A stretch of 64,000 bases of DNA, from NCBI RefSeq assembly GCF_964204645.1, contig NC_134026.1:27810150-27874149 (forward strand). The letters run 5' to 3'. The notes under the pieces were generated by a model. That model was not told the origin of the DNA. It did not search any database and saw only the letters and a program-made list of their open reading frames with translations. Position numbers and translations under genes: made by a program. Shown here one piece after another: positions 2,028-55,480 of this stretch. Every line of letters starts with the position of its first letter. The stretch's first letter is position 1. This DNA is from Tubulanus polymorphus. Taxonomy: Eukaryota > Animalia > Nemertea.

Positions 2028-6587
<4,560 letters not shown>

Positions 6588-12431: not shown

Positions 12432-15400
12432 ATGGATATGTTGCCACATCATTCCCAGCCACAAGTTCGGGTCTTGGTTCTGAATGAAGGAGAAAATAAG
12501 GAAAATTGTCTCTTTAGATTTGAAAAAGGTTCGTTTTCGTAAACAATTCTTTTTGATGCGAATAAAAACTTGAAGCTCTAATATGATTTGTTGTAATGAT
12601 TTTTCAGGTTGGCAGCTGCGTTTTACGCTAGGGCCATCACTGCATTCGAAATTGGTGCGAATATTCTGCAATCATCCGCAAGAAGAAAAACAAACTTTCG
12701 AGCGACATGTATATCATGAGTTAAAATGGGTCAAGCCTTCGATATTCAAAGCCGACAATTTTGATGACTACGCCGAAGTAAAAATCATTCGAGGAGGCTC
12801 ATTTAATTATTTCTTTACAATATGTGACAGGTAATTTGGGCTAGTAAAAAGTTTCTTCATGTTATTCTTCAATAATGCTCAATAATTTCTTCAATTGTTT
12901 GTCATTGTATTTTACAGCACTGCTAAAGAAGATGCGAGTGGCCTCGGTTACTTTTTGGTCGATCCAATGCTCAATGTTGGCAAGGAGAATGATTCGATTA
13001 CATTGGACTGTATTCAGTGTCAGTCAATCCTTTCAAAAAGTCTTGGGCCATTCAGTGAATGGGAGGGAAGACTCCTCGTGGCTAAAGAGTCTGGCTATAA
13101 CATGATCCACTTCACACCGTTACAAGAACTTGGTTATTCAAACTCGGCGTATTCACTGAAAGACCAGCTACACCTGAACTCTAACTTCAGCCCATCCCCG
13201 GAAAAACGCTACACATTTGAAGACGTGGCTAAGTTGGTGAAATTTATGAAGACGAATTGGAATGTTTTATCGATGACTGATTTAGTCTACAATCATACGG
13301 CGAGTAATAGTCAATGGATACATGAACACCCAGAGTGCGGGTATAATTTGATCAATTCCCCACATCTAAGACCGGCGTACATCTTCGATAGGGTTTTCTA
13401 TCATTTCAATGCTGAGATAGCGGATGGAAAATGGGAGAAATTTGGTATTTCAGCAAAACTGAGCTCTGAAGATCATTTACAGGTATGGTTGTTGTTAAAT
13501 TCTCAATGTAGTGTAGTTTTATGTACTTTTCCTAATTCTCATTGATTTCACTCTGCAGTGTATAAAGAGAATACTCCATGAAAATGTATTGCCGAGGATT
13601 AAAATCTATGAATTTGCAATGGCACATGTGGCTAATGTAACAGCAGAATTCAGGAAATTAGCCAAAGGTTAGTTCAAAATATATGAATCAGAAATTGATT
13701 TTGAGTATTCTACAGTTTACAGATCGAAATTACTAGGGAAATGGTTTTATTTCAGTGAAGGGTTGTCCTCCGGATGATAATCTCTACAGTTCACCAATTC
13801 AACTCAAAGTAATTCAGGATCCTCAATATAAACGTCTCGGATGCACAATCGATATGGAGCTTGCGTTAAAAATGTATAACCGACCTATGTAAGTAACTGA
13901 ATTTAACAACTATTCATTCATTCAATCAGTTACTCACAATCATTGCATACCGGTACATTTCTACAATTTCTAGTCCTGGAATAATCAACGAGGAGCAAAG
14001 ATTAGATCATTGTTGCAAGCAACTTCAAACTCAGCTTGAAATACTCAATCATCATTGTTATGAAGAGATTATGGAACATTTACAAAAGGCAGTTGACAAT
14101 ATTTTGGCAAATGCTCGCTATCGATTTTTAGACTCGCACGGTCTTAGATTAGGAACAGTGACAAAAAAGACCCCGATCATGTGGCAGTAAGTGATTCAAA
14201 ACGATTCATCTTCAAGTCTGTTATAATGCCACTATTGGGACCAATAGAAAACATGGTGATTGGACTTTAACTGTATATGAACATCGTATATATTCATTGC
14301 AGGTATTTCTATCATCCTGAAGAAGATGATGTCGGAATTGAAGAAGAGGAGAAGTTGATGTATACCGAAAAAGGAGCTAGTCGTTTCGCGTATAATGGCT
14401 GGGTGATGAATGATGATCCATTGAGAAATTTTGCGGAACCTGGTGAGTGAATCATAACTAACGTTGATGGATTGATTTAGATTTTGTTATATATACGAAG
14501 GTAATTGGCTTTTGCTTTTTTCCGCATTGTTTTTTATAGGTTCAAATATATATCTTCGCCGTGAATTGATAGTTTGGGGAGATAGCGTGAAGTTGAGATA
14601 CGGAAGAAATCGTGATGATTGTCCGTATTTATGGGATCATATGTTGCTGTATACACAAGAAACAGCTCGTATATTCCAGGGAGTTCGATTAGACAACTGT
14701 CACAGTACACCTCTTCATGTTGCCGAGGTAGGCCTCGTGCTAAAACACCTTTTCATCTTTTTTATCCGCATAACTGTGTGAATTTCATGAATCGAAAGAC
14801 TACTATCGGTACATGCATCGTATTTGTAGTTTATGTTGGATGAAGCTCGTAAAATTCAGCCTGATCTCTACGTGGTAGCGGAACTGTTTACTAGCAGCGA
14901 ACATATGGATAACATCTTCATCAACAAACTGGGAATCAATTCTCTTATTCGCGGTTCGTAAAAAGAATGTGTCTCACTTCCGCTCACCTGAAAAGATAGA
15001 GAGAATCGGAAATTATTTGGTATTGATTTGTTTGTTTGTAGAGGCAATGAGTGCTTGGGACGCGCATGAAGAAGGTCGTCTCGTGTATCGATATGGTGGT
15101 TTACCCGCTGGTGCATTCATACAGCCTCACGTACGACCACTCGTTCCATCGATCGCTCACGCTTTATTCATGGATCAAACGCATGACAATCCATCACCTA
15201 TAGAGAAACGGTCGGTTTATGATCTCCTTCCTAGTGCGGCGTTAGTGTCTATGGCTTGTTGCGCTACTGGAAGTAATCGTGGCTATGATGAGTTGGTGCC
15301 TCATCATGTAAGTTCTCATGTTAAATGTCTTTGACCGCACTGACTCTGATGATATGAGTTAAAACTATCGGTTTATTTTACAGGTACATGTTGTCAATGA

Positions 15401-18400
15401 GAAGAGATTATACTCATCCTGGAGTGAAACAAATGGAAATGGAAAAGTTGGGTTAAAATCTGGAATTATTGCGGGTAAAAAAGCTTTAAATAGACTTCAT
15501 TACGAGATGGGCATGGCTGGATTTTCGCAGGTGAGATTTCATTAAACTGCTTTTTTGTATCTTCAATAATTTACCTGCTACAGCAAAAGCTTCATATCGT
15601 ACTATCATTTTGTAGGTGTATGTTGATCAAGTTGATCCAAATATAGTCGCTGTCACAAGACATAATCCTCTTAATCATCAAACTGTTATATGTGTAGCTA
15701 GGACTGCATTTTCTCATCCAAATAACTTAGATACAGGTTTCGTTCCTCCTCTCTGTGTACCAGGTCAGTCAAACATGTATATTGCAGTAACTACACTCCT
15801 GTTGGAGATCAGGCTCTAACTCACACCATTCATTGAACTGTTATTTGTTGTTTTAGGACAAGTTCATGAAATAATCTTAGAAGCTTATCTAAAACCAAAG
15901 AATAATTCGCATCAAAGTCATGAGAAAGATCCAAACTATATCAACGGGCTGAATAATTATGTTATTCAAGTGCGAGAAAATGTGAAACTTTATGAAAGCG
16001 AGATGATCGAATTAAACAACAGTAAAGATGATGACATTGAAGAATACGAGTTTGTCAATTTCCCACCTGGTAGCGTTCTAGTTATAAGGTTCGTTTAAAG
16101 TCCTAATTGATACCAACCTGAAATGGTCTGATCAATTCTTAAATGGATATTTTTTTTTCAATTTAAGGGTTTCGTTGAATCAAGGTTGTAAGAATGCTAT
16201 TCTATCAGTGAGAAAGTGTCTGTCTCAATTTGGTTATCGTATGAGATCGTACAGCGGTCATCGCATTGAACGTTCAAACAGCACAACGGATTTCAGGTCA
16301 ATTGTCTCCAGTTTAAGTTTGGCTGATTTGAACCGTGTATTGTTCCGATGTGAAGCTGAAGAGCATGATGACATCAAAGGGGGAACTTATCACATACCGA
16401 ACTGTGGAAATCTCCCTTATTGTGGTCTACAGGGTAAGTCAACTGTTCATTGTATTTTTGATGTTGTACATGTTATGTCTCATCTAATATTTCTTAATCA
16501 TCTTTTTTCGTAGGGTTCGTATCTGTTTTGACCAAAGTTCATAGCACTAATGATCTAGGTCATCCGCTGTGTGAAAATCTGCGAAATGGTAATTGGATGC
16601 CAAACTACATATCGAATAGACTGAAAAAGTATCCCGGAACTAAAGAGCTCGGACACTGGTTTGAAGCTGTATTCGAACAACTAAGCAACGTACCTCGTTA
16701 TTTGATTCCCTGTTATTTCGATGCCATTGTCTGTGGTTCGTATGCCATCTGTCGCGAAATTGTTTGGATGAAAATGTCTAAGTACGTTTAGAAAAACTAT
16801 TATTACCAGTATTTGTGAAAACTGGTTGGCTATTATTATGATATTCTAATTATTGTCAATATTCTATCTTTAATCAAGGTTTGTACAAGAAAGTTCTTCA
16901 TTTGTGCAATCTTTGTCATTAGCAACGCTGCAGTTTTGTGGCACCGTTAAGACTGCTCCTCTGCCAAAACTCTCACCCAATCTAGCTACCCCTTTACCAC
17001 CCACTACTGTTCACGAAGAAACGGGAAAAAGGGAACAGTCGTGTATAACAATCAGTGCAGGTAAATAGTGCCACAATCAACTGGTAGTTTCAATGTTGTA
17101 ACATTTTCATGTAGCCGTATGGATTTCTTTTAGGTCTTCCTCATTTTGCTGAAGGGGTCATGAGAAACTGGGGACGTGATACTTTCATCGCATTAAGAGG
17201 TCTTCTCTTACTTACCGGACGTTACCAAGAAGCAAGGTAGATTAATGAAGATGATCAGAGTTCTTCATCTTTATTATTATGCAACTGGTTATATTTTTGT
17301 GTATGATTTCAGGTATATAATTCTTGCTTATGCGGCTACATTACGTCATGGCCTGATCCCTAATCTACTCGGAGCTGGATCCTGTGCGAGGTATAACTGT
17401 CGTGATGCTGTGTGGTGGTGGTTGTACTGTATACAAATATACTGTGAAATGGTACCTGATGGTTTCAATATTCTCGAGGATAAAGTTTCCAGACTTTACC
17501 CTAAAGATGATTCACTTCCAGAACCACCTGGATTCTGTGTAAGTTCTTTCACGTTTTCATAGAAAAATGAATAACTTTTGAATGAGGTAGTATAGTTAAT
17601 AATGATTTGTGCATATTCATCCCTTCTACATCAGGATCAGTTATTGAAGGACGTTATCCAAGAGGCCATGGTTAAACACTTCCAGGGGACTAAATATCGA
17701 GAGAGACATGCTGGTCAGAATATTGATAGAGAGATGACTTCAGAAGGTAAAAACCAATGGTTTGATTTCTTCGTTCTCTTTTTGATTCCCTGTTAATCAT
17801 TGTTTGCTTTTTGAAGGGTTTAACGTTGAGTTTGGTGTGAATTTGGAAACTGGATTTGTTTGCGGTGGTAGTGTTCAAAATTGTGGTACATGGATGGATA
17901 AGATGGGTAGTTCCCATTGTTCGAACAACAAGGGAAAACCTGCTACACCTAGGTATTATAATGACATTCATCCATCAAATAAGTCAGTTGAGCTGAACTG
18001 ATATATAAATGTGAATTGTTTGTAGGGATGGTTCAGCGGTTGAACTTGTTGGTCTCAGTAAGTCTACTGTGCGTTGGTTGTCAGAGATTCATGATAAAGG
18101 ATTATATCCGTATGAAGGAGTTTCTCGTATATCTGCAGGTAAATCTTTATCAGGATCAAAAGGTGTATCATTTACCTTTTTCTCATATTTCCTTGCACTT
18201 TTTGTATCTTAACTTATTTTGTAGATGGTCAAACTATCAAATGGACCTACAAGGAATGGAATGACAAAATCCAGCAGAATTTTGAGAAGTACTTTTTCAC
18301 AGCTGTTGAACCGTACAACAGTGAAGAAAATCCTGATTTGATTAACCGTAGAGGTATCTACAAAGACTCGTACAAAGCTACTCAGTTTTGGTCTGATTAT

Positions 18401-19227
18401 CAATTGCGACCAAACTTTCATGTTGCAATGGTTACGGTAAGTTGTTTTTGACATATTTTCAACGGCTATGAATCATTAATCAAGATTTTTATGTGATGTA
18501 TGTGGAATCTTGCCTTTTACAGGCACCCGAAATGTTTACACCCAAGAATGCTTGGACCGCTCTTGCAATGTCAGAGAAATACCTGTTAGGACCACTCGGC
18601 ATGAAAACCCTTGATCCAGGGTAGGTCTATTTCATTGTGTTTACATCCCCAGTAATTTTGAAGGTTATATATCAAGTTGTGTTTTAGGGATTGGGCATAC
18701 AATGGAGACTATATCAACTCTGTGGACTGTCCTGATTATCACACTGCGAAAGGCTTTAACTATCATCAAGGACCAGTGAGTTGAATAAAACTCGATATTT
18801 CAAGTGATATTTCTGGATATATACTTTTACTTTATTGATCTGTGTTTTAAGGAATGGTTGTGGCCAGTTGGATATTTCCTCCGAGCAAAGCTGCGTTTTG
18901 CAAAAGAGATGGAGTCAATTGAGCCTGGAATTTTGCAGAAAACCATTCGATTCACCCAAGGATATCTGGCCCATCACCACGAATATATACAAACTAGTGA
19001 CTGGAGATCATTACCAGAACTTACTAACAGTAATGGAAAGGTAAATACTCTAACTTGACAATTCTATCCAAAAGCATTAAAAATACAGGTAGATACAGCA
19101 TGTCAGAATGTTTAATCATTTATACCAAATTTTTGTTCATTTGTAGATTTGCCACGACAGCTGTCCAGCTCAAGCATGGTCAATAGGCAGTATGTTAGAA
19201 GTCATGTATGATATACAGAAGTACTAG
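12432..19227 (+). CDS. AGL: Glycogen debranching enzyme (4-alpha-glucanotransferase / amylo-1,6-glucosidase), multi-exon
   Basis: Start [33 protein letters not shown]. Motifs [108 protein letters not shown]. Stop TAG at 19225-19227. Confidence 0.97.
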
Positions 19228-30932: not shown

Positions 30933-32038
30933 ATAACAATGTGACTAGCTTAGCTTTAAGTATTCAATTGGCAAGATATGAAATCATAATCATTTTTCTT
31001 CAACCTCAGACTTACAGTATAATGTATTCTACATAATATGTACAATCCATAATCAGTGTTTGGTGAGATATTTGATATTTATAGGATGTCCATACAGTAT
31101 GTGTACGTGGCCACTAATGAAATTTGTGGTATAGATATGGGAGCAATTTCTGAGCTAAAAATAGCATAATACAATGAATAAAAGTTCTTACAAACATCTT
31201 TTTCTGACAAGAAACCATTCTCAAAAATTCAGTATGATAATATGAGGACCTTGCATGCATACGATTTCTTCATGGTATGGCTGGGCCCCTATAGTAGCAC
31301 ATAGATGATAAATATACATGCTAATGTTCTAACTTCATGGAATGGCGAAAGTTTGAAGTATATTCTTTGATTGACACAAGTGCAACTGATGCTAATGAGC
31401 AATAAAATAGCCTTGATTTACAGTGTTGAAGTTGATAGCTTTTCTGGTAGTAATTCACCCAGTTTCAACTAAATCGTGGCAAGATATTTTTGTCCGAAAT
31501 AAAGCACAATTGACAAATCAATTGGTTATCGTGCATACAAATGGAAATCTTATGCCAGAAACGATTGGCACAATGACAAAACAGATGCGGTATTGAGTTT
31601 CACTCACAAACTTTATATTCACATTATCAAACAACTGAGGAGATCACTGAGTCTGAATATGATACGCCTATTTCAAACTTCATTCTTGATACATGTATCT
31701 GAACTGTAACTAGCAACGTCGCTTTATCGATTCCTCAATTTTGATAGTGTACGGCATGCACGGCGCCAGTCATTACATGACATTGCTTTTTCACCTACGC
31801 AAAATTTCAATCGTTTCTTTTCCACCACGAACTTAATTACGTTTTAAATCTCAGCACTGAAGAATAATTATCATGTAACGTATGGTTTTTATGTGCAGTT
31901 AAAAACACAAATGCACATAACGTGTTCACACACAGACACACGCGCTTATCGGAGATCATGAGACAATATTCAGTCTATTCCTCATCATTATGAAGAAGCT
32001 GAAGAACAATAGTTTCTAATTTCACAGATATTCAGTCA

Positions 32039-35000
32039 TTATTTTCTATAGCTGTCCGCGCTACTGATACTGGTTCGACTCCAACTACGGCGATTTTTCC
32101 CATGTCGTCTAGTCCTGGATCGTGATCGGCTGGGAGAATGGCTGGATGAGCTCGGTGATGTTGGCGGACTTGGACGATAATATGGAATTGGTCGCTTTCT
32201 TGCACTAGAAAGATGAGGTATAAAATTGAGTTATCATCAGTCAGCGCTGAACGATTGGTTTGATATATGTCGGGCATATGGATGGCGTGTACAACATAAC
32301 AAACAGTTTGTGTGCAAAATAAATGTATAGAAAGATGTGACTACATTTGAAATCTTCAGTCTGATAACTCCAAGATTGTATGCTTGTTCCTTAACCCCGC
32401 AAAACTTACCTTGATCTGAAATCAAAAATATCTTTAGATATACATATATACATGTACTGGGAATATAGTCCATTATGCAAAATATAAAGGATAGAACTTT
32501 AGCATGATCATCTCCCAAAAACTATATTAAAAAACCAACTGAAACAATACTTTGATAGCTTTGATACTGGAGAGTAGATTCTCACAAATGTTGGAGCGTT
32601 TGCACACGCTAAAATTGAAATTGTTCCCATCCAGTTAATGGTAGCGTGACGGAATAGCTTTCAGAGTGTCCTTCAGCTACATTATTTTATTTTCAATTCG
32701 ACGATAAATTTAACAGTGGAAAAGTTTTAATGATCGTTAATTACCCCAACAAACTAGAAGAAACTTCTCAAGTAGACGTACATTTATTTAAACATGAGAC
32801 TTAGCCACAGTCTTTCAGGCACGATTAAAAAAATTCACAATAAATATCTGCTTTGTCAATAACAATTAAAGAAACTACAAGTTTTCATATATTAAATGAG
32901 AAATTGATGAGAGAGGCAGACATTGCAATTGGTACAAGCAGTGATATTTGAACTGCTATATACAGTTACTCATTAGATCATGTTTTGAAAGGTTACAGAA
33001 ATCATTGATTCGTAAGTTTTGCCCCACAAGTTCGTTGACATTTGAAACCTTTTGAATTGGGTTAATAGTGGTTAAATATACAATAGGATATGATAGAACA
33101 GTGCTGTAGAGGCCGACCAAACACTTCATGAATTCAGAAACAACATGTTCTGTCATATTCATATAATTATTGATGTTACACAAATTTTCTAAGTAGCAAT
33201 CATATGGATATTCATCATTCATAAGTTGCAGCAATAGACAACTTATTACTGGTTAATCCAATGGGAGAAGCACATTTTTAATAAGTTCATGTAGTTTCAT
33301 TCTATTTGATTGGGGGCAGAAAACAATACAAGCCATAACTCTGAAGTAGTGTGTGAACAATAAGCAAGTTACAATAAATGCTTTGTAGGTATACAGACAT
33401 ACATTGTTAATTATTTCATACTAATGACAGTTTAGATTGGATAATGCACAGACATATATAGCATTCAAATTAATCAACACAGTATTATAAATACATATCA
33501 GTATGAACTGATGGCCACAATGCATGATTCAAACTGATACATTACCTATGCATATAAAAAGGTTATATTGAAGGCAGCCAATTAGGGCGAGTAATTTATT
33601 TTTCATGAAGGAAGGTTAATTAAAGTAACTCAACTGTACCATACCACGAGATGATACAGCATAGATTTCTGATTGAAACTTTGTTAGTGCACCTGAGATC
33701 CCGTAGATGAGTTAATCAAATGATATTGACGGTTAATCGAACAGAATTTTGGTTATTCAGGCAAAAAATGCAATAATTAGTATTCCTTATGATGGGGTTA
33801 GTATAATGAACTATTCAAATCATACCATATACCTGCAGTAACCTGATGAACGACTGGAATACTGGGTCCTTTAATATTGAAATGTGACATTTATATTAAA
33901 ACATAGGATAAAGATAAAAACAGCGTAAACTAGATTTGCTAAAATCTCCACCTCTAGTAGTGTAATTTTGATAGGACTAATTTCAAAAATTCTTTCTGTT
34001 ATTTAGCAAATCTAATTCATGAGATAAGCAATACAGCATGCAAAAATAAAACTGAAGGGAATGAATAAAGATGAAATAAAATCAGTGACAATCATACACC
34101 ATTAAACGACATATCTACGAATAAATATCATCAGCCCAGATATACAAAATCCCTTGTCAAGTAATTAATGTGCATCATTAATAACTGGTTTTGACTGAGA
34201 CATCCTTCGGTTTGTTTGACAATCAATATTTGAACAATAGTAATAATCGTTATTTGATTGCGAAATGGAACCACATCCTATTGACATCATTGGATTTTTT
34301 CTCCATTCAACCATTGCCAATAGTTGTAACACTTTTTGCGATGGCCGATCCATATTATACACATACATATAGCTATGGAATCCTAGGACATGACAAACAC
34401 GATATCGAGAATGAGAAATAATTGCATGACGTAGTTGAAATGGAATCTTACCTGGTAATTCTACGTTTATCTAAATGACTAGGTGAGCCTATTCGTCGTC
34501 GTATGGATGGACTTCGAGAGAAACTGGATCTTGAATGCGACCGAGATCGCGAGTAACTTGCGGATCGAGCCCTCGACCTTGACCTGTATTTCGAAATACA
34601 TTTTTCCATTATTCCAAATGCCTATTGCCAACATTATATTTATGAAATATACATATTAGAATATAGAATTCTGTGACTATCGCACAAAGAACTATGACAT
34701 GAGAAGAGATCATCACAAAGAATCTTGCAACTCTTTTTCTCAGTGATTTCTGCAAGAAGGGACTGAATATTTGCACAATCTGTTTATCATTCCTCACATA
34801 CCCTGTACACGAGTCTGTCAATAAGTGAAACGGATTAAGTGGCAAATATTGAATGCAAGACTGGGCTTTTAGAAGATTTTCAAGCGCAAAGAATTTAATA
34901 GTTTATAGACCGAAATGTAAGAGTTACCTTCTGTTTGGATAGGAAGATCGTGACTGTGATCGGGAATGTGATCGTTTACTAGTCAGTTTTGGTGATGTTT

Positions 35001-38000
35001 TAGCAGATGATACCAATCCATTTTGTTTCGTTGGGCTATTTGAGGCACTGTGAACTGTGAGATTTTTCGGAGAAGCTTTATATCTATAATTAGAAATAGT
35101 CATCAAATACCGATCAGTACAGGGAAGTGAATTAGTTGAAAGAAGATGTCAGAATTTCATCAAAATCAAGGACAAATAAAGCATTGTAGATTAATCTGTT
35201 TTGTTAATGACATTAATTTGTTGTTAGAGTAAAAGACAGGAAAGACATTGTCACTATCAATGAACAGCTTTGGCAGGTAATATCCAGAAAGTGATTAACC
35301 AGCCATTATTGCCACAAAGACTCAAAATTTTTTGATGTGCTATAGAGCAAAGTATTGCCATGTGATACAATTTCCATTGGGACATGGTACTAATGCGACG
35401 GTAAAGGTAATTCTTTCGAAGATACTTTTTTTGTCACCACGAATTTGTGCATAGCGGTAGCCGCTACCACAAGTGTCATAACACGCATAACATATATAAT
35501 TCAGTGTAAGCTTACCTAGCAGTAGGTGAAGCAGATGGTACTTCTGCTGGTAATTCTCGCAACCTGATGAAAAAGGAAATTTGTGTTTGTCATGGCTTTT
35601 GGAGAACTTGGCGTACAAGTTAAACACCTTTTAAATTTGTCTACCGACCTCTCTTTCAACTGGCTTGGACTAGCCGATTTCGTACAACTCAGTTTAACTT
35701 TACTCGAAGGCGAATGAGATGTACCTCGTCTTTTCGATGATTTTTTGCTCCTATGATATCGATCATCATCAGAACTGAAATGTAAAGAGTAAACATGAAA
35801 ATTGAGAGGATTGTTGATGCAATGCAAATTTATCAATAGTTTTGTTCGTCGGAAGAAATGGATTTTTGTCGACATGAACAATGTTACGCTCAAACTGAAT
35901 TTCATCTTACTATATCATATGCAAATCAATAAGGAATTTTAATATAATAGATAGTACAATGTAGTTTCTCGCGCTAAATAGCCCTCCTTATGTTTCTGAA
36001 ATGATCGGCTAAATGCAGCATTCACAGACTTTCATAGAACGTGCAGGAAATTAAAGGTGTTCTGTCAAGGCAAATGGTTATAATGAGACTGAGTATGAAT
36101 ATGTGTCATTAATGAAGTCACGGGACACCTAGGTATATACATGAATGCATCAAAGTTCTATCAGTCGTATGATAAGCTATCACCTACTCTAGCAAGCAAT
36201 TTCATAATGGTGAAGACGGAAGATTAGATTCGTTTTTTCAGATCATGCAATGACACAAGATTCTGTGTTTTGTGTTACTTGAACCTGGCTTTATCAGTAG
36301 GATTATACAATGGAGGATCGACTAGGCCAGCAGAGGGTATTAGAGATTCGCCATACTATACCTTTCATCGGATTCGGTTGAAGAGCTTTGATTTGAATCG
36401 GCTGATGAGCTGCGTGTCCGCTTTTTTTTCTTCTCCTTTGAACTTGATCTGCAAAAGATTAACAATAAAAACCCCTACAGGAAAATGCTACTGAACAGCG
36501 GTGGGTATCATTAATGAGACAAACCATTAGTAGCTTAACCAAAAACTGCACATGGATTATACAGATGTTGTCATGGGAACGTATGATTAAATTCATAAAT
36601 ACCCAGCAATATACATGAAAGGATTCGAATTCACATTAAAACTTTGACAAATGCTTTCAAATATTGAGCTATAATTGCCTCATTAGATTTGATCCCACAC
36701 AGAGCCTCCGCGTTGAAATGATTGTGAAGTACCTTAATTGTCGTCGAAATATGTAAATTAAAATCTAATCAGCTTTTTAGATTTAGACTGCAAGCAGTTT
36801 AATTCATATATCGTTCTATCATCACTTTTGAATATTTAATGCTTCCCAGGTTGATTTGAAAGACAAGTAACAAGATCCAGGATAAGAGATTTGCTGCAAA
36901 ATGTCAGGTAATCAACGAAACCATGCTCTTATCACATATTACAATTTTTCCAGTATTTACCAACGAGAATATGCACTTTTTTAAATGCAGGAACTCATTA
37001 CTAGGTATCAGTTACTTACTTCTTATGCTTTCGGCGTTCTTTCTTCTTCTTGTGCTTTCTTACCGGTGATTCTGATCTACAAAATAGATAGACAACAATG
37101 AGATTAATGCGCGCGGAGAATGATCGTCATTTCTAGATGAATATAAAAAACGCCTCAGTCCTGTATTAATAAGAAAACAGTGATAACACTACACCAAGGA
37201 GATAATAAACACCAACATGGAACATCTCCATTCTTAACTAAATCAATCAGACCTGTTATTGTTCAAATATATGTATATATTTATAGGACCAACCATTGGC
37301 AAATGGATGCAGGAAGATTATTGTTAAAAATCTTTAAAAGGTTTATATAAAAGGTTGATTATGAATTTTTCCCTATCTTCCTTATCTTTTAACTCAACTT
37401 TGGGATACTCTTCTTGGAATACTAGGAAAAATCTCAGATCTGAACAAGACCTCAGTATCTCAATTCATTATCAAAGATTCCACCGATTCACCCTAACTAT
37501 TGACAGATGTAACTCAAAATGGCATTTCTGCTGGTTTCTCGGCCATTCTTGGGGTTAAGTGATAAATACGGGACTTCTTCCATATAGATTAATGCCAACA
37601 ACAGTGGAACTACATGTATGTTGATTTCTGTTATATTCTATGTTACTGGAGCCTGGATCTGCACTCTATCAACTAATCACATCATTTTCGCCAGAATGGT
37701 TTCACTTATAGAAAACACCCAGTCATCGGAAAACATTCAGACAAAACAAATCAACAAATAGTTGATCGAAGAAAACAGATTTACGCGTTTTGCATCAAAA
37801 CAAGAATTAAACGGCTAGTGAACTCATGCTATGAATACAGAAACCTTTGAAGTTTGATCTGACATGTATTTTTTTTAAATTATAAGGGGGATGTTTGATG
37901 TTGATAAGCTTCTGAAACTTGCTCTCCCTTTCTCGAGGAAGGTTGCAGATATGAATTCATTATCCTCCGCTAGGCTGCTTTCATATCAATGCTCCATCAA

Positions 38001-41000
38001 ATCTGTCTTTGACGTGATTAAACCATGATGAAATTTCAGAAGGGCAGATTTCTTCCACACACAAATTCTAACTTAAAAATAATTTCAAGCATAGCATGAT
38101 TTACATGGGAAGAAAGGCTTCTTAATAAACCAGTAAAGTTGCTAAATACGCTCACAATTAAGATCATAAATATTTATACGTGACTAATGAGAAGATCGAG
38201 TTAGTCAGAATATTTTTTCAAGAAGTTTAATTTGTTTTCAGGTTTTACAAACTCTCTTATAAATAGCTACAGCGCCATTTATTTATCCCCAAAATAACAA
38301 CGTAATTGAATTATCACTAACATGCATCCATTTGCCAGTTTGCCAATGTAAATTTACGCACAGTGGCTGTTCACACACTATCGAGACAGTCAGACTTGTG
38401 TGTGAACTTGTTTGTTTGAAAAACTAATAAGATTTTGACACAAAATTGAAGATGGTTTTTGACGAGCTCTTACCTGACTTCAAACTGCATCAGGATAATG
38501 TTAGGCAGTTGAAAAAAGGAAGTTTAAGAGTGTACTCAGTTATAAATGGAAACACACATTCGGGTTTAAAATTCGTTTTCTCAGAATCAGTAATATATTA
38601 ATAATACGCACACAACACATATATTTTTTTAATCATCATCACCGCAGACATTCCGGGGCCGCACAATGAAAATCATATAGTTCATATACATATATAATGA
38701 GAGTTCATATCAATAACCGCATGTGTTTTTAAGACGGACATTTCGCTGACTACAGATTCAGCATTCATAATATGATGACACATGACATTTAGTTCTATTT
38801 TATTTCTAAACTACGACTGAAAAAGTTACGTTTTCTTATTAATTTCATTATGGTTATGTAAACAGCCACGGGAATCTTGGATATCAGAGATCTTAATATC
38901 TGAAATAAATAGTCATTTGCCTCAGCAAGCAGCTCAAAAAGACAAGCTCATTGAATATACCTGGTCAGCTACCTTCAGAAAAGGTATTGAAATTCACCTT
39001 TTTAATAAATAGAATTACTATATTTATTTGATAGGATAACTATTGGTGTAGTTGTATTTTTTATCAAATTTCAGCTTCAAGGGTTTGAATGTTTCTACAT
39101 CGATTGTAAATGAATGAAATGAGGAATAAGAAAAAGTTATTCAATATATATATATATATACAATACTTTAAATCAGTCTGTCATGATCCCAACCTGAGAG
39201 GCAGAAAATAGGAAAAGAATATTGAACACTTAAAATACATAATTTCAACTTTCATTCATTGCCTAAGGGTATAAATGAATATGAACATAAAAGGTAACCA
39301 AAATTGAAATGAAACATCAGCAGAAAGAAGGTATAGAGCAAGAAAAAACAAATGACACAATGATGATTTTGATGATTGAATGGTTTTTTCATAGTCATTA
39401 TTTGCCAGCGTAAATTGCAACATCCTTCATAAGACGAATGTTAAAGGTTATAACACTAAAATGCTTTCAAACACTAGATATGTTTCATGTTGGTTTTTAA
39501 GTGAGCCATGAACGCACGAATGATCATCCATGCCATTCTTTGGCATGACTGTAATGTGATGAAATGTTCGTCGGAATGATAATTTAAACTGGCAAACGAG
39601 ACTGAACACAGTGAGGCTAGGAAAAACAATAGTGTGATAATGATTATAATAACCGTACAACAATAAACCCTGCTTAATCATGCAACTAGTCCAGTTTCTA
39701 ATCACCACTGCCATGAATGAAAAAAATTAGCCAGCATGTACTCGAGATTGTTCGAGAAATCAAATGAAAATACCAGTTTTACCTTTCTAAAATAGCTGCT
39801 TTTCAGGAGAGAAAAATATTTCGATGAAAATGTTAAAAACCATTAGGCGTTTTTCTATTAGGCTATTGCGTTATAACAGAGATTGCGCCAAAGTATCAAA
39901 CATTTCGTTATTTGGATCAAAAAGAAATAAAAGACAATAATTATGCTGCCCGTGAGCATATGAAAAATGTTTTAATTCGTCAAATTTCGTCGTATTCATA
40001 AAAGCGTATTTCGTACCTACATCGATTCACTGCAAGCAGTTGATATATCCTTAAGCAGAATTTCATTGTCAATTTGAAATGGTTCACTTTTTTGCTTAGA
40101 ACATTTTGTCAGCGAGCGCCTAAATATAGTTGTACGTACCAGCTATAAATTCCTGATAACCAATTACGAAAGCCAGAAGAAGGAAACAAAATTATTAAAG
40201 TGTCCGTAAATATATCATGCAGCGGGACACAAAACGTGGCCAGTTCAAAAAAATGTATTCCTTCAACAATTGAAAATAGAATGAATTGCAAACTAAAATC
40301 TCATAAGAAAAGCCTTCATGATTATTCATTCTGGTGTTTATATCGACTATCCTTCATTACATAGCGAAATGAAGCTTCTCACAACAGATTTCTGTATAAT
40401 ATGTAATAATCTGCATCTGTCACCATAAATAAGCGCATTCAACAAATAGTAATAGCATAGCGCGGGTCTGATTTTCATAACAATCTATAATTGTAATAGT
40501 TATCATCATGTCTTGCCTTCAGTCAAAAGACGATATTAATAAATGCAACCTTTTCCAGCGACAGAAAATCATAAAGTTTCAGATATAAATCACTATAAAA
40601 AGGTGATTTCGTCAATATATTCATGGGGGACCTCTCTCACCTCTCTGATAGAATTAAGGTGGCTGTTAATCAGGGTTTAGATGCTCCACCCATGTGTACA
40701 CGCGCACCTTAGGCATTTTATGGAATATTTCCCAAAGTATGCTCAGGGCCGTATTTTACAAGTGAAAGAGAAGACATAATTTCCGTTTCGTTACCGTTAT
40801 ACAAAGAAATGATAGACACATAGTTAATTGATGCATAATTCTGAGTTTTCATATAAGTGTAAAACTGAAGACAAAATGAACGCAAAAAAACAAAAAAAAA
40901 ACAACGTACAACAAAGCATTAATTTTCCCACTCACAGCAGCTACAGCATTTTGATCGTTCGTCTTACGTCATTTGGAAAAAAGGTAGGAAAACTAAAGCT

Positions 41001-44000
41001 TATTTCAATATTCTATGAAAACACAGCTTCATTCTCAGCACGTGGTAATCGATAAGCAATAGATGTTGAAATATGATACGCTGAAAAGCATTTCTTCATC
41101 TTTTCTCAGTCTTGAGTTATCAGCAAGATACAGAGTCTTCACCGGTGAGAAAGCGGAAGCTCGTTCTATAGAATTAGAGACTAACACATGCCCCAACAAA
41201 GAATACCGAAATACATCTAAAAACCGAGAGAACATTTATACCGATATAAAACCATACAAAATAATAACGCAATTCTTATTCGAAACGATACGACGGCTCT
41301 TGAAGGAAAAAGTTCGTTAAGAATTCGACAGAGAAGAAAGTGACATTAAAACGGAAAATCCCTGTCGAGAGCTGAATTATTACGTAACACTCTCCGCTGT
41401 ATTATACTTGTGACAATGAAAATTACGTGAATAACGGGTTCGATTGTTGTGAAACTCACCTGTCGTGGTGTCGCTTCTTTTTCTTCTTCTTCTCACGACG
41501 TGTCGGTGAAGGACTGGATGAGCTGTAAGAAAAAAAAAAAAATCAACCTAAATTCACAAATTATCCGCAGTTATTACTCGTGTATCGGATTCACCGCTGA
41601 TGAATCGAGCAGAATCGAGCAGAATCTAGCTGAAAAGATCATTCATAATTCACCGGTTTCGGCGTTAGTCATTTCACACGAGCGGTAATTTGCGCCGTTC
41701 GCTAAAAACAACGAGAGGCGAAGAACGACTCGATTAAAGAAGTGACAAGACTGAACGCAGGAAGGAACGAATTGATTTTCGTAAAGAGGCAGCATTCAAT
41801 AATGTACAAATATCAATGTTTTCCTCGTATGACAATCATTCGCAGTTCTATCACACTCACTAGACTGTCTGTCAATTCCATCTTCTTTCATGGGAAGTAA
41901 CAACAATAGACGCTGTTGTCAATCAGTAAGCGCCAAGTATGGTGGCACTATTACTGGATAAGCTGCAGCCTTAAGGCATGATAAGATTCCGAATTGGAGT
42001 TTTCCTAGCGGTGTTCATGTAGAAGAAATTGATTTAAAGCCAGCGTATAATTTGCCCCGCGATATATAAACATTTAGGAAAAACATGTCATCGATACGAC
42101 AAATATATCATAAATCAGATCAGGTCAAATTAAAAAATTCATTACGATTGACCTATTCGATTTAATTTCAGACCTTGGTACGAACTTTCATACAGCATCG
42201 ATTTTTTATTTCATTGATCAAATCAATTCTTTGAACGAAATGTTCTTTTTTTTTCTCACAGGGCAAGCGCAACAACCTGTTTCCCGTTACAAATGAAGAA
42301 AATAGGCAATCAAGAAAGTAACAAATTTTCCCCCCAAAAAGCAATTATCTATGCGATTCGCTTTGTAGTACATGGTGGATTTGGCTGCAAGCTCAGTCCA
42401 GATGATCGATCATCAGCAGGTACCGAGAATGTAATTATAAAAGGCTTAGCACAGGATGGAGAGGCCTAGTAATATTGTATTGTGTTATCAATAACGGCAG
42501 AACTATAACTGTTCAATTGGCCTCCCACATGCCTGATATAATGCATGCAAAATCATAACTCAAATGACCAGTGCAATGATTTATGGTGCATTAACAGTTG
42601 ATGATATGACGATGACAAGACAATCTTGATTGCCTTCGCGATCATCCGTGAAATCCATCATGATTTCTAGTTCCACAGATATTTGCGCTTTCGCTGCTAA
42701 AGTCTAACATTTCTAACCGATGCAGCACGACTCGCTAGAAAAAAATATATTGATACACGGTCAACAACTGCTATTCGAAACTGTGTGATAATGACATCGA
42801 AACAGCGCTGTACGTGTAAGAAAATTGTTAAGAGCAACGTTTCATCTACATATTAACAAGAATTGATAATCAATGCGCCGAGCGGAAGACATAGATTTGT
42901 ATTTGCATCGGTGAAAACATGATTTCGTACTTAAAACTGGCCGAATGCTGCGTCTGACGTCGATAACAATAAAAAAAACTGAGCAGGCTTACCTGCGTTT
43001 AGAATTGATTTCCGGTTCATTTTCTTTCTGATCTTGTAACCGTTGGGAAATAAAAGGTTTGCAACAATACGTCGGCGTCTGCGCACTGAAAAATATAAAA
43101 TTACACAAGGGATGATGATAAAGATTGGTATTGACAATATAACACAGTCTATATACAAGCATAGGGAAGAAATATCTGAAGTTGGTCAGGGACTCATAGG
43201 TGAAAGTTAAAATTACCATATATCACATCATAAATGCATGAAAAATTTACAAAATGCATCTTACCAGCGACGCTTTGTTAACTATTAACGGCCTTCGTTA
43301 GCTCGAAGGAAATTAATAGGGTTTTAACTATCCTGAGCCTGAGAATCAAGACTAAGCTCTTTTCTTTTGTAGTTTCCGGATTGGATCTGGGATGTGGGTA
43401 TTATCATATGTAACCTTTTTCAGGATATTCGGGAGGGATTGAAAAATGTGTAATGATGAAAATTCTCGTCCATCATTTAATAGGAATGTAGGCGTACCCA
43501 TCGGATGACACAAAGATAAAAAGCTCTTCGAATTAGTGATAACAATATGAAACTTTAAACTGAGGGAACGCTAGTCTGATTGCATCCTCGCGTATAATCT
43601 ACATTGATTGTAGATTGATAGAAGATGAATTCCCCAGACAGTGGTAATTATGACCTTATAATAAGATACTGAAATCGATTTGATTAGATATAATAGACAG
43701 CTTATGACTTAGAGGGAAGTGACTGTCATAGAGTTCACCATGCGTAATTTTGTCAATGTCAAGTTGCGTATAATATACTACATTTCTTATCATGAACTCT
43801 ACACTAAAATCACTAAACTGCAGATTCCAAATACAGAATACTCCTCTGTCTAATATAAACATATATATTTAAATATCTAGACCATTCATTCCATTTTTCC
43901 GCGCGACATAAATGATTTATTTTTGAAGCCAATATTGAAAATTGAAATAAGCCATTACTGATACTGTCAAACTGTTTATTATCCACAATAGACTCATCAC

Positions 44001-53000: not shown

Positions 53001-55190
53001 GCCACGTATATTCATACGCAATGAAAAGAAAAACTTCATTCTTCTCTGTTGGCTATAGAAGCGAAGTAGACTCGTGCTGCTCTGAAACATCGTTGCTCAT
53101 TATTTCATGTAGCATGTGAAGTTCGAATATTCAGAAGCACTCCCGAGATGCTGATAAATTCTTGCTCTACGTAATCAATTTGCTGATACTAGCTCACTAG
53201 AGAAACCACATGAAGAAATAATAGAACAAACGCCAATAAGAAGTGCACAGATTCTGGTGACAAATGAATTCATCCTCAAAGCCGCCGAACTCATAGGTAT
53301 CATCTCACACAAATAAGGCTTCATCGATGACACATTTTCGCTTATCTGGTCTAGTTATTTCAAGTTACTATGGATTCTATCTTTATTCGAATTCGCGAAA
53401 CTCGATTTTAGAATCAGATGATAAATCCATTTAATGCATAACTGTAAAGAAGGTTATCGTACAAGACTTCGACGCTTCCTCAAAGATATCAGTTTCTGAG
53501 TGTCTTCTCAAAGTTGCTCAGATATGCGATCGCTGTAAGCTTTAAGATGAATTATCCGCATATTTCGATAGATATTATTTACCAAACGATCATAAGGAGG
53601 AAATACCCCAATGGCTTTGCCGATGTCTCTAGATTTTTCTATCTGAAGAAGTTTGCCATCTTAGACGTCGTCATCTACGCTAGAAAGATATCGATCTTCC
53701 CGTTGTAAAACGCCATATATTAGCGATGTAAAGTGAAAATGGTTAATTTCAAATGACACACACAATCTGTACATTTGAATATATACATTTTCTACTAGTT
53801 TTACAACTAGCAAACAAAACTACATTAATTTCTATTACTCATAATCAAAATTGAACGCCGAGGTGATCAGGAGATATCATTCACTATACAATAAGATATG
53901 ATATCATAGTCCTGGAAAACTCCGGAATATTGATTAAATTTCAAGTAATCAAATCAATCAGTATATAAACAAAACCAGTAAATGCCGAATAAAGATTCCT
54001 TTTAAATGGATAGAAATGTGAGAATAGATACGTGTTCCTAATCAATCTTTGAACACAGTTCCAAATTGATTTGTTAGTAGTGTTTTCATGATTGCATGTG
54101 AAATAACAATGCATAACTACCGGCATTTGCATGGAAGAGATACAAAAATCGTGCTCAAAGCTCAATCAAATGGAGCCTTTGAAAAAGTTTCGAAATTGAT
54201 TTAACTGCTAACCACACTACGTAAAATGATTTGAACAACCTAATAATGTTATCAGATTTATCCATGCGTAGTTTATCTAATTTGAATGTCTAAATAGAGT
54301 TTCTTTTCGCAGGCATTTTACCGCAATTTTTGAGCGAAAGGCGTCGATCAATTCAACCACGTCTATGGAAAGAATGTTCAGGAAGTTTCAGCAGCGAAAT
54401 GAAAAAAATTATGCGCTTGACGTATAAGTTTCATAACAACATATGCAAATGATGTACACAATGCCTGAGGCGTCACTTAATCTTGTATATCTTTTATGTG
54501 AATCAAATAACGGCTATATTATATAAATAACACTTATAAATGTAAGAAACTTCATAGTTAGTGAAACTTGATATAAAATTACAAACTTTAGGATACACAG
54601 CTCTAAAACTGCGCCCGATGATAGAAATTCTTGAAAGGAATTCGTTATCAGCTGGCTAAAATTTATGATTTGTGCGTAAACTGAACTGAAACGACATATT
54701 TCAGTCCCGAGATTTTTCTGTAATTCAGATAAATGATGCTTTTTCAGGTAGCAGTCTGAAAATCGTTCTAATAATAAATTCGTCATCAAAGACATGGTGA
54801 AAACAAAAAATTCCATGGAGCAATGACGGTTGAGACACGCGACATTCTGCCGACGACGTTCTTCGATTTTATAATAGATTAAATTTTTCATTCTTGTGCG
54901 GTACCATGAAATAATTCTAAACATCTCGGCAGGTATACGTATCGGTGGTTTAAATAACTAAAATAATTGTAAATCACAAACGTTTTATCTCAAATAAAAA
55001 CAATAGAAACATGGTGATAATTAATCAGACAAAAACAAACGATGAGTACTTACAAGTATGAAACGTGGGGCGGATGACAGGCGTAATTTTTCCTGAGAAA
55101 TGAAGGAACGTAACATCCTCGTGATATCACCGTTTCTATATTCCGAACATGGTACAAGTTTGCGCTCCTGGCCACGTCGGTTGACGCCAT
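32039..55190 (-). CDS. SRRM234: Serine/arginine repetitive matrix protein, Srrm2/3/4 (Srrm234) family, eMIC-domain isoform
   Basis: Exons joined in frame, all with phase-2 introns: 55054-55190, ~42993-43085, ~41460-41522, 37020-37076, 36362-36448, 35628-35774, 35516-35563, 34928-35083, 34452-34583, 32039-32204. The last two encode ...RSPSIRRRIGSPSHLDKRRITS|ARKRPIPYYRPSPP...SSADSYRK*, matching the SRRM3/SRRM4 eMIC motif (SPSHL-x-x-RRITSARKRPIPYYRPSP). Lys-rich and RS-rich segments precede it. The two 5'-most exons are less certain than the 3' ones. Confidence 0.9.
47715..47850. mobile_element. Degenerate Tigger/pogo-like MITE remnant
   Basis: Repeated subterminal-type motif CGGTTATAACGA and variants (GATATAACGA, CGGTTATTACGA, GGATATAACT). 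No intact TIRs seen. Confidence 0.45.
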
Positions 55191-55379
55191 AATTACAACC
55201 ATTTATAAAATGTTTAAACGATCAAACCTTAATCATTCGGTTCTATTCGAAATCGCAAAAATACAGCTCAATTGAAGATTGATATTTCGGCCCAGAAATG
55301 CCGGCGAGCAAGTCTCGTCCGAAATGATGGCGTTGAACCTGTGAAGTCAACTGCCGTCAACTGCTTAATGCTCCAACTC

Positions 55380-55428
55380 AGTGAATACGGATCAATATAT
55401 AAACGTTAAACTGGCGGGAGAGAGGAGC

Positions 55429-55460
<32 letters not shown>

Positions 55461-55480
55461 TGGAGAGAGAGGGAGACGGT
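55380..55480 (-). promoter_or_regulatory. Candidate promoter of the Srrm234 eMIC isoform: (GA/TC)n tract plus TATA-like element
   Basis: GA-repeat tract at ~55417-55476 and a TTTATATA TATA-like element on the minus strand at ~55396-55403, about 200 nt upstream of the ATG at 55190. Confidence 0.45.

Follow-up and report, generated by a model that had tools for sequence, protein, structure and literature searches.

The window analysed here is a stretch of 64,000 nucleotides from the genome of the nemertean Tubulanus polymorphus. Between 2600 and 25300, it contains compact genes with short introns. One of them (2600-5840, minus strand) we take to be DEAH helicase-like, by its motifs; another (12432-19224, plus strand) encodes the glycogen debranching enzyme and matches its RefSeq protein residue for residue over 26 exons. 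The gene considered in this work lies further on, on the minus strand, and one of its introns holds six microexon-sized units, referred to below as the array.

Isoform X3 of LOC141900009 (XP_074642802.1) shows a 100% match to one exon of the array-bearing gene. This RefSeq protein contains a cwf21 domain (PF08312, E 3.8e-8, above cut-off, residues 56-93), encoded by exons beyond the window, and the Atlas clusters nearest to it are SRRM3-type. The eMIC core is divided between two exons of the window, and its second half gives an SRRM_C match, which on that piece alone stays below the curated cut-off; a homologue search with the last exon as the query returned one protein. If the 36-nt exon between the two halves is left out, the predicted splice form has a contiguous RIT-SARKRP core, the same as in the vertebrate SRRM3 matches. 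No form skipping this exon was seen in the RNA examined (the X2 contigs described below). By its domain content, the host of the array is a Srrm234/SRRM3-type eMIC gene, LOC141900009, and the name Srrm234 given to it earlier is a fair one. The 36-nt exon is likely an eMIC on/off switch in Tubulanus polymorphus. A donor located 7 nt beyond it (33826-33868, minus strand) shifts the frame and leads to the end of RefSeq isoform X3, and a gene model of Dreissena has an 11-residue insert at the position of the eMIC split. The N-terminus (residues 1-130 of protein P0123) resembles that of vertebrate SRRM3 and is devoid of blocks retained by the mollusc and annelid matches, pointing to a specialised duplicate or an alternative start.

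The exon map was supported by contigs of sequencing run X2, in which eight exon joints of this gene were found (Table 1). The run was treated as RNA-type because its contigs join exons; no listed run is recorded as RNA. Since X2 contigs join 37076 to 41460, the array intron is real and measures 4383 nt, in agreement with the 4.4-kb intron that had been proposed between the two flanking exons, both of which are also present in RefSeq isoform X3. No RNA containing a unit was found among the X2 joints listed, where the 37076-41460 joint (marked "between: not known") records full skipping only, or in RefSeq isoform X3. Such a record is weak evidence of absence, because contigs lose rare forms and targets of NMD are unstable. 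The listed X2 form includes the eMIC-splitting 36-nt exon, and so it may stem from a tissue with low eMIC activity. In runs X3 and X4, contigs terminate precisely at 39796, the unit 4 acceptor; this was rejected as splice evidence, those runs being without splice joints. Their loose ends bear a self-complementary linker, presumably a sign of proximity-ligation DNA libraries. Unspliced X2 contigs over units 2-4 (39689-40634) and over unit 6 (37810-38887) were likewise left uncounted, as they may represent pre-mRNA, a retained intron or DNA.

Table 1. Exons, candidate microexons and supporting observations in the eMIC gene, in transcript order.
Feature	Positions	Strand	Observations
Exon	42993..43085	-	X2 joint 41522-42993; in RefSeq isoform X3; next upstream exon outside the window (loose end unmatched in the window)
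Upstream flanking exon, 63 nt	41460..41522	-	Rich in lysine; phase 2 at its end; joined in X2 to both neighbours; RefSeq isoform X3
Unit 1, 4 nt (candidate)	40641..40644	-	Weak acceptor 3.3, donor 8.2
Unit 2, 13 nt (candidate)	40140..40152	-	Alternative of 3 nt; 97-nt AG-free zone, pyrimidine tract back at -37
Unit 3, 13 nt (candidate)	40017..40029	-	9 nt with an alternative donor; acceptor 7.8, best of the units; UGC at -9 and -5
Unit 4, 13 nt (candidate)	39783..39795	-	16 nt with the tandem acceptor, 4 nt with the inner AG; one frame class
Unit 5, 12 nt (candidate)	38961..38972	-	Sole multiple of three; acceptor AG directly followed by GT; alone gives in-frame TAG
Unit 6, 11 nt (candidate)	38474..38484	-	Alternative of 4 nt; donor 11.3, highest of the six; UGC at -5, CTAAC near -21, no AG over 48 nt
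Downstream flanking exon, 57 nt	37020..37076	-	X2 joint 37076-41460
Five exons: 36362-36448, 35649-35774, 35516-35563, 34928-35083, 34452-34583	34452..36448	-	X2 joints; RefSeq isoform X3; 34452-34583 carries the first half of eMIC
36-nt exon	33833..33868	-	12 residues splitting the eMIC core; X2 joints; translations reproduce the RefSeq isoform X3 end
Seventh candidate microexon, 6 nt	32410..32415	-	Two residues at the eMIC split; acceptor 9.7, donor 12.6, best scores in the window
Last coding exon	32039..32204	-	Second half of eMIC; X2 joints; SRRM_C match

All six AG-[4-13 nt]-GT units described in the earlier note were located in the intron with their flanks. Their lengths are 4, 13, 13, 13, 12 and 11 nt (66 nt in sum), five of them within 11-13 nt, and it is correct that five of the six are not multiples of three. 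By sequence, each is a candidate microexon, 3-27 nt long with AG/GT sites. Each has a strong donor and an acceptor close by, which in most cases is weak: acceptor scores are 3.1-3.3 for four of the six, the lower limit in the training set, where the median is 8.7. The boundaries chosen earlier obey the first-AG rule; the best-scoring ones are the 3-nt form of unit 2 and the 4-nt form of unit 6, both of which break the 66-nt chain. The units are spaced 110-1397 nt apart, compared with 67-116 nt for ordinary introns. No repeat family common to them was found, and thus there is no sign of duplication; a search of 31000-44000 gave no Rfam matches. In one X1 contig, none of 17 intronic variants falls inside the three unit windows covered, which is uninformative because only 1.0 was expected. 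In the same contig, 12 of the 17 lie in the unit-free 1.3 kb (37077-38400) and the other 5 in 1.55 kb that includes three units, a weak difference.

Splice sites were scored with position-weight donor and acceptor matrices built from 34 introns of the window, 25 from the debranching enzyme gene (fixed via its RefSeq protein) and 9 from the Srrm234/SRRM3-type gene. Among the 265 AG-[3-27]-GT units of the array intron, the six rank 2, 3, 5, 7, 9 and 10; three of the four units ranked between them are alternative boundaries at the same loci, and the remaining one is a 23-nt unit at 41165. The intron contains 10 strong donors where 2.4 would be expected (Poisson p 1.8e-4, with cut-offs from the training set), and a passable acceptor is located 3-15 nt upstream of 6 of these 10, compared with 2 of 25 control donors (Fisher p 0.003). 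When two training sets, two length limits, four donor cut-offs and five acceptor cut-offs were combined, the intron exceeded 56 kb of control DNA at all 80 settings (p 5e-7 to 0.09; below 0.05 at 79), and the excess persisted when the model was trained on the neighbouring gene alone. A scan of both strands of the whole window gave 23 matches, 8 of them at the six loci.

With the score floor of the six units taken as a post hoc cut-off, the intron holds 6 loci, its antisense strand 0-1, and the sense strand of five 4.4-kb stretches of the upstream intron of the same gene 0, while 300 shuffles average 0.27-0.45 loci with a maximum of 3. For a threshold-free sum over the six best loci, 15 and 28 of 1000 shuffles did as well as the intron (p 0.015-0.03), a result that fails correction, since about 29 intron-sized stretches were available to choose from. 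Neither AG depletion (p 0.07-0.10) nor pyrimidine content (p 0.36-0.42) at -60 to -26 was significant. We read this as a real excess of splice signals; it is carried mostly by donors and comes from a small model.

The consequences of inclusion for the reading frame can be enumerated. Of 64 possible subsets of units, 20 have a length divisible by three, the number expected by chance, and 9 reach eMIC: none, all and 7 partial ones. The remaining 55 are unproductive, their stops falling 555-661 nt ahead of the last junction in the cases written out. Taken singly, none of the units is tolerated, and this point stands without any picking of boundaries at the chain level: five units shift the frame and unit 5 introduces an in-frame TAG, the stops lying 555-617 nt before the last junction. 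All six single inclusions therefore have the property of a poison exon (a stop over 50 nt ahead of the last junction), and none of the six shows the frame preservation of eMIC-dependent microexons. By estimate, six random units would all be disruptive about one time in five. Assuming that each unit is included independently of the others, the share of productive messages would fall from 1 to 0.74, 0.55 and 0.14 at 5, 10 and 50% inclusion and return to 0.59 and 0.77 at 90 and 95%.

The complete 66-nt chain is stop-free and in frame with both flanking exons, as had been claimed, and it stays a multiple of three and stop-free with unit 4 at 13, 16 or 4 nt. A productive full chain is given by 12 of 144 combinations of unit boundaries. 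An open chain results in 12.6% of draws of six units from 31 controls, 8-27% of shuffled bodies with the same lengths lack a stop (a third of which applies when the frame is also considered), and an in-frame 66-nt chain is expected by chance in about 3-13%. The codon usage of the chain does not differ from that of shuffles (p 0.36-0.41). The open full chain is modest evidence. The prediction that partial inclusion would mostly be unproductive holds for 55 of the 64 combinations, but the description "all-or-none" is too strong, because 7 partial subsets still reach eMIC.

The link to eMIC was considered through the architecture of the splice sites. UGC motifs were said to accompany two acceptors, and they precede units 3 and 6 only; there is no enrichment before the units (2 of 6, compared with 5 of 25 constitutive acceptors). 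In mammals, 74-79% of SRRM3/4 targets have UGC, which is not strictly needed, and the targets are characterized by a strong donor, a weak acceptor and a pyrimidine tract that is set back (10.1101/2024.09.17.613571). Units 2, 4 and 6 combine these three features. The donors of fly eMIC exons are reported as weak (PMC8797185). Neural microexons usually preserve the frame (PMC10551640), and for this reason the six units are unlike independent protein-tuning microexons. We infer from their size, their architecture and the host gene that they may be regulated by eMIC.

Taken together, the six units may form an eMIC-sensing poison-microexon array that limits the level of the eMIC protein itself, a reading we favour while holding it only tentatively. 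At low eMIC activity, the array intron would be removed whole. As neuronal eMIC activity rises, one or a few units would be included and the message lost by NMD, and six units of unequal strength would provide a graded brake on eMIC output. Full inclusion would restore the frame and place 22 residues between two lysine-rich blocks, either as a real high-activity state or by coincidence. Negative feedback would be the simplest use of such an array, given that the encoded splicing regulator does harm in flies when in excess and that no unit is tolerated alone. In the fly, both excess and loss of eMIC do harm, and a poison exon is already in use at that locus (10.1101/2021.02.24.432780); autoregulation through poison exons is common among splicing factors. 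Against a pure brake stands the first-AG chain, which reopens at full inclusion, as a brake should not do. An extended form of this idea, in which the regulator counts its own activity, appears to us distinctly unlikely. Protein would then be made when all units are skipped or all included and nearly everything between would be destroyed, so that output is braked at mid-level and freed at saturation, and the 6-nt microexon would tune eMIC.

The units could instead be splice-like sites that arose by chance or have decayed, in an intron rich in AT, and that see no meaningful use, which we regard as rather unlikely. This would fit the absence of inclusion among the X2 joints listed and in RefSeq isoform X3, the threshold-free p of 0.015-0.028 before correction for the choice of intron, the training on 34 introns, the weak acceptors and the missing UGC excess. 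It does not sit well with the donor excess and the pairing of donors with acceptors, with enrichment at every setting (including training on the neighbouring gene), or with the lack of such loci in the five upstream-intron stretches; moreover, the X2 form may derive from low-eMIC tissue and contigs lose rare forms. The donors could also be real but serve longer cassettes, recursive sites or alternative first exons, for example those of a cwf21-less SRRM4-like protein. Donors are indeed the strong half of the signal, and four further strong donors have no near acceptor. In addition, the good acceptor at 39193 could pair with the donor at 38998 or 38961, unit 5 and 39193 are AG-GT sites, and a Nucella gene model (P0133) starts three residues before the array junction. 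Still, we judge this explanation very improbable in view of the 6 of 10 donors with an acceptor within 15 nt and of the five unit lengths confined to 11-13 nt.

The earlier note had proposed a coupled cassette, in which the six units are spliced together in neurons to add 22 residues and NMD clears partial products, making a two-state switch. Such a cassette would account for the open chain better than a poison array does: the first-AG chain is open whichever form unit 4 takes, its chance probability is 12.6% for six control units or a third of 8-27% for shuffled bodies, and the productive share recovers at 95% inclusion. The 7 productive partial subsets, the 12 working boundary sets of 144 and a codon score no better than that of shuffles speak against it, as do the acceptors scoring highest for units 2 and 6, which break the chain, and the homologues, in which an insert at this junction was found in 0 of 21 (all gene models, with two named spiralians). 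We therefore consider the cassette unlikely, and the earlier interpretation as a whole is partly supported. The poison array and the coupled cassette predict the same U-shaped output; what separates them is whether the full chain occurs.

The homologues came from 52 proteins examined. Besides the query, 22 have the junction motif, of which one stops at that point and 21 run straight on. The only named spiralians among these 21 are Haliotis and Dreissena. As judged by the protein junction, the intron position is common to molluscs and vertebrate SRRM3. A metagenome scan for relatives gave 596 pattern matches, 0 of which were confirmed.

Several other candidate features were noted at the locus. 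The 6-nt unit in the last intron may be a better single microexon candidate than the units of the array, judging by its site scores; it was not seen among the X2 joints listed or in RefSeq isoform X3. The downstream flanking exon has an internal strong donor (9.4) 13 nt from its start, use of which is predicted to create another 13-nt microexon (37064-37076) and to drop a lysine-rich block. The acceptor at 39193, directly followed by GT, and the strong donor at 38998 (minus strand) could bound a 196-nt cassette that excludes unit 5. In the upstream intron of more than 20 kb, a CT-rich stretch followed by an ATG-led open frame running to a GTAAGT donor was seen by eye at 55050-55480 (minus strand); it is a possible alternative first exon.

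If the poison-microexon array is real, it would mean feedback of eMIC onto its own message, through an array in the regulator's own gene, in a spiralian. Studies of how microexons of differing sensitivity combine would also gain a natural six-step sensor. Known control of eMIC dosage acts upstream, by Elav/Fne or transcription, and no feedback onto its own message is described in the available parts of the sources (which also include PMC13247117 and 10.64898/2026.09.14.751627). None of the papers listed by our literature search was on microexons within a Srrm234/SRRM3/4 gene, on eMIC self-feedback or on eMIC targets in spiralians.

Among known systems, the RPS24 microexons (3, 18 and 22 nt) and the adjacent plant microexons of 5 and 12 nt (PMC8831610) are similar to the array in that several lie between two ordinary exons and some are not multiples of three. 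They differ in having fewer units and in lying outside a microexon regulator, and the available parts of the sources describe no feedback role for them. The eMIC-dependent neural microexons of vertebrates (SRRM3/4) and Drosophila (Srrm234) resemble the units in size (4-13 nt here), in the mammal-like strong donor and weak acceptor, in the long AG-free zone or set-back tract of three units, and in being skipped in the recorded forms. In contrast, the array has six units in one intron, five of them not multiples of three and the remaining one with a stop, has UGC in two units only, sits in the regulator's own gene and is known from sequence alone.

The 3' end switch of Drosophila Srrm234, in which a proximal exon is terminal or poison, is comparable to the exon between the eMIC halves with its in-frame and frameshifting forms here; that switch is located at the 3' end and driven by Elav/Fne in flies, whereas the present array lies in a 5' intron, and the text consulted has no mention of such an array (10.1101/2021.02.24.432780). 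Further known systems are the poison-exon autoregulation of SR proteins and fubl-1/fubl-3 and the neural poison microexon of Bak1, with which the array would share a predicted premature stop, NMD and action on the regulator's own message. Each of those cases, as presented in the partial sources, involves one exon; in the array, six tiny units stand in series, and the frame reopens at full inclusion.
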